Below, piece after piece: positions 1 through 3,000 of a stretch of 23,276 nucleotides of DNA (position 1 is its first letter; every line of letters starts with the position of its first letter). Position numbers: made by a program. Source of the stretch: a virus (taxonomy: Duplodnaviria; Heunggongvirae; Uroviricota; Caudoviricetes); IMG/VR virus record IMGVR_UViG_2636415416_000005, positions 1-23,276 of that record, one strand, 5' to 3'.

Positions 1-3000
1 CATAAGGATTATAGCTTCCATTAGGATCATAAAGATAAGGGCTTGATGAATCACCAGACACTTCAAAATAAATAGCTGAATGATCTCCCATTACCTCGGC
101 ATTAGTACTATATACTCTAATTGTGGATGTAATTAAAATTATTTCTGATGTATATTTTGTTTTTTTCTGAGTGTTATCTCCTCGAACATCCGTCCATTCT
201 TTATTTAACCTATTCTGATCTATTCCTGCTATCTGGTTATCTGTTCCTGAACCTTCTTCGGTCTCATACGTATCATCCATCATTGACGCAATAAATCGCG
301 CCTTACACGGGCAACTGCTCTGGCTGTCCAGCGTCCCCGCCATCAGCCTGCCGTGAATATCTGTTTCAGGAACGCCGCCCACAATAATAAACATTCCCGG
401 ATATCTGCCGCAGGTGACCCGGTCCATATCCCGTGCCTGTGGGATACCCATGATCGTATGGTCGTCCGCGCCTTCAATAATCTTCCCGCCGCAGGTGGTC
501 TTATCGCCCCTGACCAGAAAATAGCCTCTTCCCATCGTCATCACTCCTTATGCTGCGTATCACACAGTACCGCTGCCCGTACCGGATCGATTGTTACCAG
601 CGTTCCCAGCAGGATTTCCATTTTTCGGTTCAGCAGGGCTTTATCAGCATAGCGGTGCGCCCGCAGGCGCAGCAGTTTCAGCTGTCGGGCTTTTACCTCA
701 AACTCGCCTGTGTGCTGGTCCAGCTCAGCGATGCGCCGGGTTGCCACTGTTCATCCGGCCAGTTAAAACGCTGCCAGCGTTCCTTCTGGTTGAAATACTC
801 CAGTTCCTGCCCGTCAATCACCAGATGTGTTTTCATCACGTCTCGGGCCGGTTTTGCCCGCAGTTCAAAATGTATTCCGGCATCGCCGCTGGCAAAGGCG
901 GTGTCGGCCACATCGCGCAGGCGGTTCAGGGCGCGGATAAAGTCCGGGTTGACCGTCAGCCCCTGCGTGTTCATGGCGTCAGCCACCCAGTAGCGGCCTT
1001 CACGTTTCAGTACGCCGGAAAGGTTGGCGGCAATAAACTGGTTGATGCGCCCGTCATCGCGCAGATACTGCGCCAGCAGGGGAAGAGAGGCATCGTTTTG
1101 TGAGGCTTTGAACGGGTAGCGACCGGCGAAGTCCTGATTCCAGTGGCTGACAATCGCCCCCTGCCACTGGCGGTTCAGGCTGTCCGCCGCAGGCGTCAGC
1201 ACCTGCCGCCACGACTGCTCCACCGGGCGGACGAACAGCGCCTGACCGAAGCCACTCCATTCCTCGCCCAGACTGGCGGCGATTAACCGTCCGTAGTCGC
1301 GGGTGTCGGTGAGGTCAACGGTTTTGCCCTGTAAAACCGTCTGCGCCAGTTGCTGGGTCATCTCCTGTGGGTCGGGGGCGTTGGTCACCTGTTGCAGTTT
1401 GAGGCGTACGCGGGTGACGCGGGTCAGATACGTTTGCAGGCTGAGTTGCGTATCACCACCACTGCCTCCGGCCTTATCGCCCAGCAACCGCAGCAGCGGC
1501 GCGAAGGTTTTATCCAGCGGCCCGACAGGCACGTCGCCTTCACGGGATTGCTGTGGCGTTTTCTCCTTGCCGTTAAACAGTTCCTGTGCCGATTTCGCCA
1601 GCGAGTCTGACAGACCACGGTTTTCCCTGCCAGCCGCCGCCTGCCACGCGAGGGTGTCCGTCAGCGCAATCAGTGGCGACTGACGGGCATCGGCCATCAG
1701 TGTCAGCTGGTCGAGAATGCCGGAGAGCGAGTCTTCCTTTTTCCAGCGAATGCTGTTGAGAAACGCCAGCCAGCTTCCGGCAAAGTCGGTAAAGTAGCGT
1801 GAGGTGAGACGGTTACGCAGCGTATCCGGCGAGATATCCGCAGAGGTATCCTGCTGGCGGTCGCTGAGTACCCAGTCTATTTCCTCGCGCCGCGCCGTCA
1901 CCACCTGCTCGATGGCTTCCCTGACCTGTCCTTCCCACGCCTGACGGGTGAACATCCCCGGCACCGTCTGTTCCGTACTGAAAAGAGATTCGGTGAGGGT
2001 ATCCCCGGTCATGTCCGCCAGCGTCATATCGGCGTAGTTGCGGGACACCTGTTGCAGTACGTTCTGGTAGAGAGTGTTTTCGGCATTACGCACACCAATC
2101 TGGCGCAGCAGGATTTTACGCACCGCGCCGGTCAGTTCCGGTGGCGGCGAGGTTTTCCACTGCAGGTGTTCCGGCAGGTTCGCCATCCAGAAGGTCAGCA
2201 GCGAGGGCAACACGCTCTGACGCACACCTTCCGGGATATTTTCATAGCGCAGGCCGTCCGCCATCAGCGTGGTACTGAAAAAGGCAGCGTCGGCCTTTTC
2301 CGGGCGGGAAGTCATCAGCAATGCCTTAAGCTGCTTATAGCGTTGTTCACCGGTGGCGGTACGCTGAGGACTGTTGGGCGGCAGTGCGACAAAGGCGTTC
2401 AGTTGCTGTTGCAGATGGTCAACGGCCACGTCGCGCACCAGCCGGTTTGCCGCCTTTGCATAGCCGGGAAAGGCGGCGGCGAGCAGTTGTTGGTTACGTT
2501 CAAGACCAAAACGCTGATACCACGGCGCACCTTCGCGGATACGATATTGCAGGCGCTCCAGTTCGCCCTGCAGGGTATGCAGCGCCACCAGTTGTTCTGC
2601 CAGCGGCAGGCGGGTATCAAGCGCACGTGCCGTCTGGATACCGGTTTCCTGAACAAGAGCGCGGTTGGCGAAGAACGAGGTCGTCATTCCGGCCCCCCAT
2701 ATTGCCAGCACGCAGACAGCGGACATCAGCGCGGCGCGTAGCCACGGAAAGCCCACTGTACGCCCCCGTGCGTTATCGCCGGTCACGCCCGCCCAGACCG
2801 GTGACGGCAGCCACGCATGAGGTGCGGCCTCCGGCACGGCGGTAAGCGGCGGGCTGAACATCAGGCCGCGCAGGCGCAGGGAAGAGAATGCGCCGCCTGC
2901 CAGCAGCGGGTTTCAGAACGCTTTGCCAGTGAGCGATACCCCGCTCTGCAAGGGTATGGGCCAGACGCAGCAGAAAATCATGGCGGTTATCGGTCAGTAG

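Follow-up and report, generated by a model that had tools for sequence, protein, structure and literature searches.

The 23,276-nucleotide stretch of tailed-phage DNA analysed here (IMG/VR virus record IMGVR_UViG_2636415416_000005, positions 1 to 23,276; hereafter the window) begins, on its minus strand, with the 5' portion of a gene that, judged from its sequence and its context, codes for a specialised effector of a type VI secretion system (T6SS), a PAAR-fused polymorphic toxin. The C-terminal domain of this protein is most likely, from alignment and structure models, a circularly permuted papain-like (NlpC/P60-superfamily) cysteine hydrolase with the active-site order His, Asp, Cys, and in related loci a small gene overlapping or abutting the toxin stop codon probably encodes its immunity protein. 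Considering all the evidence, we favour, with moderate confidence, a phospholipase-like acyl hydrolase that would act in the periplasm or at the membrane and be paired with an immunity protein of four transmembrane (TM) segments.

The PAAR gene and its N-terminal domain

The features identified in the gene and directly ahead of it are the following, all on the minus strand (A1 is an alignment of relatives):

1..535, minus: PAAR-toxin fusion gene, first 178 codons, running off the window at position 1
544..549, minus: Shine-Dalgarno-like AAGGAG, 8 nt upstream of the ATG, read from the sequence
338..508, minus: PAAR domain core (aa 10-66), which caps the VgrG spike; PF05488 PAAR_motif
252..277, minus: module junction, defined by the DDTYE motif and the end of homology to other E. 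coli PAAR alleles
263-277, minus: DDTYE motif (aa 87-91), common to the relatives in A1
155..262, minus: hydrophilic, poorly conserved linker (aa 92-127), showing no conservation in A1
1..154, minus: toxin domain, first 51 residues (aa 128-178) of about 180
80-82, minus: codon of the predicted catalytic His152
26-28, minus: codon of the invariant Asp170 (DPNGSY motif)

Translated on the minus strand from 541 to 1, the window reads MTMGRGYFLVRGDKTTCGG... (more fully, MTMGRGYFLVRGDKTTCGGKIIEG...), with no stop codon up to the window edge. In a Pfam scan, PF05488 (PAAR_motif) matched aa 10-66 with E = 5.8e-10 and 39.7 bits against a cutoff of 27, in agreement with the PAAR-like N-terminus proposed in an earlier note on this DNA, which had been made from the sequence alone. 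The start codon is likely the second ATG, at 535, which is also the RefSeq start of the orthologue in Escherichia coli W and follows shortly after the tssA stop codon (TGA at 541-543). This orthologue is a 305-residue protein annotated as 'PAAR domain-containing protein' (WP_001350083.1; NC_017664, locus L001). Window positions 2-703 are 99.4% identical in DNA to L001 7998-8699 (blastn), and the 178 residues encoded in the window differ from the E. coli W protein at one residue. Because the E. coli W orthologue is complete, the C-terminal extension can be given as 214 residues (aa 92-305); the short tail devoid of a domain, which the earlier note had named as the outcome opposed to its proposal, is not what is found, and the extension holds a domain that could be modelled at moderate confidence. 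The gene lies directly downstream of tssM-tssA in E. coli W, in two contigs from uncultured Enterobacteriaceae (L003 and L004) and, with these genes as remnants, in the window, where the upstream IcmF/TssM domains and the TssA tail identify the context as a T6SS cluster.

Composition break and module exchange

The GC content is 0.545 in 261-535 versus 0.338 in 1-260, and at third codon positions it is 0.63 for codons 1-91 versus 0.18 for codons 92-178. Positions 1-260 form the lowest-GC 260-nt stretch in the whole 23-kb window (fraction at or below, 0.0004), and a two-segment likelihood model places a change at about 296, with a gain of 17 log-likelihood units over a single segment. These figures show that the AT-rich break, which the earlier note had described as lying after about position 300 (to be read in the direction of the gene, that is, as plus-strand positions below about 300), is real and not a sampling effect; the peptide that it quoted from the extension, ...IILITSTIRVYSTNAEVMGDHSAIYFEVSGDSSSPYLYDPNGSYNPY, is present exactly. 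The possibility that the AT-rich frame is open by chance was considered and is ruled out by homologues at 56-100% identity and by the conserved domain; an 87-codon open frame arising by chance in DNA of 34% GC is in itself unlikely (about 1e-3, by our own estimate).

In a megablast search of complete E. coli genomes with a 700-nt query, 1,252 of 5,426 matched the part comprising the tssA tail and the PAAR domain, and the whole query was covered in 102, with identities up to 99.4%. The partial matches, which occur in more than 1,100 genomes, stop at query positions 437-449, corresponding to window positions 252-264, just past the DDTYE motif. The C-terminal part together with the downstream open reading frame (ORF) matched 104 E. 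coli genomes, of which 103 contain both. Furthermore, E. coli W carries a second, N-terminally truncated tssA' followed by PAAR', 96% identical to window positions 261-703 only, after which PAAR' diverges into a different C-terminus that is cut by IS3; from its sequence, this tssA'-PAAR' copy represents a displaced cassette such as polymorphic toxin loci typically contain. The distribution of the two parts among these genomes (1,252 with the N-terminal part, 102-104 with the C-terminal one), together with the occurrence of the same domain on VgrG and Rhs carriers described below, supports the suggestion of the earlier note that the AT-rich extension is an exchangeable toxin module, apparently swapped at the DDTYE junction.

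The displaced cassette belongs to an orphan array in E. coli W that lies downstream of the active module, at L001 9791-15127, and is composed as follows:

L001 9791-10084: second small ORF with TM segments and a weak DUF1240 match
L001 10116-13195: truncated tssA' and PAAR' with the different C-terminus, interrupted by IS3
L001 13266-14228: further C-terminal fragment
L001 14218-14643 and 14720-15127: two small lipoprotein-like ORFs

A conserved membrane-protein gene at the toxin stop codon

In E. coli W, the toxin stop codon overlaps, in an ATGA arrangement, the start of a 132-codon ORF (L001 9080-9478), which is unannotated in RefSeq. By tblastn (E = 3e-19 to 3e-22), homologous ORFs of 131-132 residues stand at the same position in Yokenella and in the two loci from uncultured Enterobacteriaceae. 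A small gene thus overlaps or abuts the toxin stop in four divergent loci, as is typical of polymorphic toxins; a further copy was found in a metagenome-assembled genome (MAG), where the PAAR-toxin gene lies between corC and luxS, away from T6SS genes. The four aligned ORFs share 16 invariant positions in a full-length alignment, and each has three to four strongly hydrophobic segments which, taken together with the alignment, give the count of four TM segments. They are only 25-35% identical where the toxins are 56-68% identical. Behind one distant, Rhs-borne relative there is likewise a multi-TM ORF, whose G..G..SF / LLxGW pattern resembles theirs (hhalign, E = 0.017). The candidate immunity ORFs have no Pfam match at E <= 1. 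From its position and conservation, the four-TM ORF is probably the immunity candidate of the PAAR toxin, which is what the earlier note had expected, namely a small immunity ORF downstream of the toxin and outside the window.

For this ORF, too, a chance origin in AT-rich DNA was considered, and it was rejected on account of the length, position and sequence conserved in four loci. As for annotation, 24 full-length matches were listed (the module being present in 103 genomes), and for 22 of these the feature lists name only the PAAR protein. The L003 and L004 contigs, whose toxin is 68% identical, carry an AcrVA2-like gene (PF26125) between tssM and tssA (L003 1453-2289 and L004 1176-2129).

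The toxin domain family and its carriers

In a word-indexed search, all close relatives of the toxin domain came from Enterobacteriaceae, namely E. coli, Citrobacter, Yokenella, Cronobacter, Atlantibacter and a MAG. An exhaustive profile search of 1.84 billion representatives returned 28 proteins at E < 1e-3, a second profile search returned 91 proteins at E <= 0.01, and the search for related loci with alignment A2 gave three species representatives only. As in other polymorphic toxins, the same domain is found on PAAR, VgrG-type and Rhs/YD-shell carriers: the PAAR-borne versions are from E. coli and Cronobacter; in Yokenella the domain is 67% identical and sits on a VgrG-type C-terminus (Gp5_trimer_C, 2e-10; DUF2345); and many distant members form the extreme C-termini of Rhs/YD-shell proteins, in which the DPxGL motif is immediately followed by the domain, beginning at the position equivalent to '...IILITST'. 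When the full protein, the domain, the immunity candidates and the distant relatives were compared with Pfam and NCBIfam, only the PAAR, Rhs and VgrG carrier domains were found.

A weaker tier of relatives (E = 1e-9 to 1e-3) consists of lipoproteins of about 190-215 residues, with named members from Pseudooceanicola and Paracoccus (L011 4001-4561, L013 4001-4642, L014 and L015), which share the His...Cys core with the toxin domain and have no Pfam family. Their neighbourhood is conserved and of housekeeping character, with genes for an acyl-CoA dehydrogenase, lactamase_B, DUF6173, COX4_pro_2 and the lipoprotein, followed by AzlCD, and these Rhodobacterales lipoproteins may represent a housekeeping branch of the fold family of the toxin domain.

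A copy of the toxin domain 98% identical to that of E. coli is found in a different genus, in Entomohabitans teleogrylli SCU-B244 (L007 3001-3546), which suggests either a very recent horizontal transfer or a genome that is taxonomically close or mislabelled.

Predicted fold and catalytic residues

In a 16-sequence alignment (A3), which includes members down to 26% identity to the E. coli sequence, the invariant residues are His29, Asp47 and Cys139, in addition to a few Gly, Pro and Tyr. In the 305-residue protein they correspond to His152, Asp170, which is 18 residues past the His, and Cys262, 110 residues past it. Two AlphaFold models of the toxin domain, built from 6- and 16-sequence alignments, are of moderate confidence (predicted local distance difference test, pLDDT, 75.4 and 79.2; predicted template modelling score, pTM, 0.78 and 0.80) and display a papain-like core fold. 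A helix (139-147) begins with Cys139, and a strand (26-34) contains His29, which corresponds to the papain-type arrangement in permuted order. Fold comparison gave the following values:

RID of MARTX: 9.2 / 9.6
YiiX: 8.6 / 8.9
TseH (T6SS effector): 8.4 / 8.4
B. cereus YiiX-like 3KW0: 7.3 / 7.1
PPPDE: 5.9 / 6.1
CLN5: 5.3 / 5.4
PLAAT4 (next relevant match): 4.1 / 4.3

A Foldseek search against the PDB had a best E of 0.058, with TM < 0.25 (the structural score). On the basis of the alignment and of the secondary structure of the models, His152, Asp170 and Cys262 are the predicted catalytic residues, and it is their order in the chain that points to a permuted domain.

Comparison with known systems

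One of the closest known systems is Tox-Act1 of Salmonella pathogenicity island 6 (SPI-6) (Nicastro et al., PLoS Biol 2026), which uses H43 and C151 as the catalytic residues of a permuted NlpC/P60 core, is toxic only in the periplasm, where it causes lysis with the rod shape kept, and acts as a phospholipase on phosphatidylglycerol and phosphatidylethanolamine, with a membrane immunity protein (PMC12994826). Tox-Act1 has 279 aa, and Imm-Act1 is an 86-aa protein with two TM helices, of the DUF4229 family (PMC10469887). PAAR- and Rhs-fused versions of Tox-Act1 are included in the S3 table of PMC12994826. The PAAR toxin resembles Tox-Act1 in being a T6SS antibacterial toxin with a permuted NlpC/P60 core (as predicted by the models, in its case), encoded near the tssM end of the cluster by a gene that overlaps a small membrane immunity gene (a putative one, in the case of the PAAR toxin). 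Whereas Tox-Act1 is a stand-alone cargo effector of about 279 residues with demonstrated activity, the toxin described here is a domain of about 180 residues fused to PAAR, for which we infer the activity. As to position, Tox-Act1 (P0112) lies directly downstream of tssM-tagF in SPI-6 (L009/L010 3001-3693, from Salmonella reads), which is analogous to the location of the E. coli PAAR-toxin gene downstream of tssM-tssA.

Another of the closest known systems is TseH of Vibrio cholerae (VCA0285; PDB 6V98; Pfam DUF6695). By eye, the motifs of the three families are alike, with the Tox-Act1 sequence recovered by means of a chimeric query assembled from peptide fragments deduced from published primers, and the TseH sequence recovered in part from PDB alignments:

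PAAR-toxin family: His motif GDH-SAIYF, then YLYDPNGSY; Cys motif SCAEW; His-to-Cys distance 110
Tox-Act1: His motif AGH-AFVSV, then YLYTYGRYG; Cys motif NNCTTH; His-to-Cys distance 108
TseH: His motif LGH-AGVIL, then RYYEYGRYK; Cys motif HNCMTF; His-to-Cys distance 108

A metagenome scan with the Tox-Act1 primer sequence gave no match. At the level of HMMER, the toxin family is separate from Tox-Act1 and TseH, and its putative immunity partner is of a different type.

YaeF/YiiX (Peptidase_C92; PDB 2IF6, 3KW0) and LRAT/PLAAT are housekeeping or eukaryotic enzymes and not toxins; the PAAR toxin has no match to their profiles (PF05708 or PF04970), has Asp where their third residue is Glu or His, and lacks an identifiable counterpart of their conserved active-site Tyr. 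RID of the Vibrio MARTX toxins (PDB 5XN7), the best match in the fold comparison, is 9-12% identical, belongs to a 551-residue chain and has no immunity gene; it is delivered into eukaryotic cells, where it acylates lysines of Rho GTPases and septins (PMC10924143). As in the PAAR-CT/Rhs-CT polymorphic toxins (Zhang et al. 2012, PMC3482391), a conserved trafficking module is combined with a variable C-terminal toxin and an adjacent putative immunity gene; orphan cassettes occur at displaced positions, and one toxin is found on different carriers. The present domain does not belong to the Tox-* families modelled in Pfam, and it has the order H, D, C, whereas Tox-NLPC/P60 in PMC3482391 has the canonical order C, H, D.

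Proposed mechanism and alternative explanations

In the mechanism that we propose, the PAAR domain would form the tip of the VgrG spike, with the exchangeable toxin domain of about 180 residues attached to it by a short linker, and firing of the T6SS would carry this toxin domain into the periplasm of a Gram-negative neighbour. Once there, it would attack fatty-acyl ester or amide bonds at the membrane, by phospholipase A-like hydrolysis or possibly acyl transfer, through a Cys-thioester intermediate, leading to membrane damage. The producer would be protected by the 132-residue four-TM immunity protein, whose gene overlaps the toxin stop (ATGA). The AT-rich toxin-immunity cassette was probably acquired horizontally and exchanged when recombination took place in the conserved tssA-PAAR segment, up to the DDTYE junction.

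The main argument for a membrane- or lipid-directed activity is the immunity candidate itself, which is almost wholly membrane-embedded and so could neutralise the toxin only at the membrane; the known chemistry of the fold is the second. The pocket of YiiX holds a fatty acid, and in permuted members the S1 pocket is hydrophobic (PMC3142127); RID acts as an N-epsilon fatty acyltransferase (PMC10924143); and besides Tox-Act1, a periplasm-acting phospholipase with a membrane immunity protein, TseH also shows phospholipase activity (PMC12994826).

Several observations weigh against this assignment. The window holds only the first 51 residues of the toxin domain, and the predicted catalytic Cys262 lies beyond its edge. 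The C-terminal domain has no Pfam or NCBIfam match even at E <= 10, nor any match to the NLPC_P60, Peptidase_C92, LRAT, DUF4105, DUF6695 and Peptidase_C97 profiles, and searches of PDB sequences with profiles A2 and A3 gave chance matches only. The conserved active-site Tyr of NlpC/P60 enzymes has no equivalent in A3, in which no invariant Tyr stands just upstream of the Cys. The neighbouring ORF, with 131-132 aa, four TM segments and no Pfam family, is unlike Imm-Act1. Finally, in hhalign comparisons with Tox-Act1 or TseH the PAAR-toxin family reached probabilities below 1% (0.06-0.16% with E = 0.36-0.73 for Tox-Act1, for which hmmsearch gave p of about 0.04, in a low-power test). The control comparison of Tox-Act1 with TseH, as single sequences, failed too, which means that this test of homology has little power, and Tox-Act1 itself, as a control, also has no Pfam match.

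The separation from the known families can be taken further, and we tentatively consider, as a less likely proposition than the lipid-directed hydrolase as such, that the toxin is the founding member of a third family of permuted NlpC/P60 T6SS toxins, set apart from TseH/DUF6695 and Tox-Act1/DUF4105, with its own four-TM immunity family and Rhodobacterales lipoprotein relatives, and possibly with a different substrate or with acyltransferase chemistry. Instead of bulk phospholipids, the toxin could then attack, for instance, the acyl chains of lipoproteins, or lipid A or lipid II-linked bonds of acyl or peptide type.

The classical activity of NlpC/P60 enzymes would make the C-terminal domain a peptidoglycan amidase or endopeptidase that lyses prey from the periplasm, as the Tae-type T6SS effectors do. 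However, amidase effectors are neutralised by Tai proteins, which are soluble periplasmic proteins or lipoproteins, whereas the putative immunity protein here is almost all membrane-embedded, with four TM segments in 132 aa, and we regard this explanation as unlikely. More improbable still is an action on proteins, either as a lysine fatty-acyltransferase similar to RID and IcsB or as an isopeptidase or protease of PPPDE type, which might work in the target cytoplasm or against eukaryotic cells. The tightly linked and conserved small membrane-protein gene points instead to an antibacterial toxin against which the producer must protect its own membrane. In addition, the PAAR, VgrG and Rhs carriers are of antibacterial type, and the housekeeping relatives, being bacterial lipoproteins, are extracytoplasmic.

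Condition of the locus in the source genome

The lipid-directed toxin proposed above describes what the gene encodes, and a separate question is whether it can still be used in the genome from which the window derives. The remaining features of the window are:

541..703, minus: tssA 3' remnant, last ~54 codons and stop, from the alignment with E. coli W (tssA at L001 6550-8160)
704..4086, minus: tssM (IcmF) pseudogene, from blastn against E. coli W, with IcmF-related, IcmF_helical and truncated IcmF_C domains
4547-5893: IS4-family transposase (Nterm_IS4 and DDE_Tnp_1)
5997-23226, minus: Mu-like prophage
5997-6734, minus: Mom
6953-9489, minus: tail fibre and assembly genes
10407-11630, plus: DDE transposase, inside the tail-fibre region
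11876-14885, minus: baseplate J/gp46/gp45/gpP
14885-16159, minus: DNA circularisation protein
18090-18485, minus: tail assembly gp41
18853-20328, minus: sheath

Relative to E. coli W, a 1,709-bp deletion with its junction at 703/704 has removed the tssM 3' end and most of tssA, so that the truncated tssM now runs into what is left of tssA, its last ~54 codons. In addition, tssM is split into two ORFs (693..2861 and 2773..4086) by a +1 nt frameshift at about 2910. Past position 4431, which falls within a hypothetical gene with a +1 nt indel at 4360 and lies beside the IS4 element and the Mu-like prophage, the window no longer matches the E. coli W cluster; the upstream half of the cluster, vgrG included, is missing in the window. 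None of these junctions occurs in the complete E. coli genomes searched. Since the core genes tssM and tssA are disrupted, the T6SS has probably decayed in the source genome and delivery of the effector has probably been lost with it. It is quite likely, in our view, that the gene is a non-functional relic there, the toxin being perhaps still expressed but undeliverable, in a locus under decay. Against this, the 178 codons in the window are intact, one residue away from E. coli W, and a second T6SS elsewhere in the genome could make use of the PAAR protein. A relic state concerns the present condition of the locus and not the identity of the gene, and it is compatible with a lipid-directed, PAAR-fused toxin.

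Significance

Systems of this kind are well known, a functionally analogous family having been characterised in 2026, and no general concept is changed, as both the architecture and the evolutionary logic are textbook polymorphic-toxin biology. The toxin sequence family and its putative immunity partner, by contrast with the kind of system, appear to be undescribed so far. The effector, labelled only as a 'PAAR domain-containing protein', is present in about 2% of the complete E. coli genomes, the widely used strain W among them, and precise residues (H152, D170 and C262) and a partner ORF can now be named for it as candidates. The family links this toxin to metagenome Rhs toxins and to uncharacterised lipoproteins of Rhodobacterales and, if it is indeed a permuted NlpC/P60 enzyme with a membrane partner, it would enlarge by one family the class of lipid-directed, papain-fold T6SS toxins that was opened only recently.

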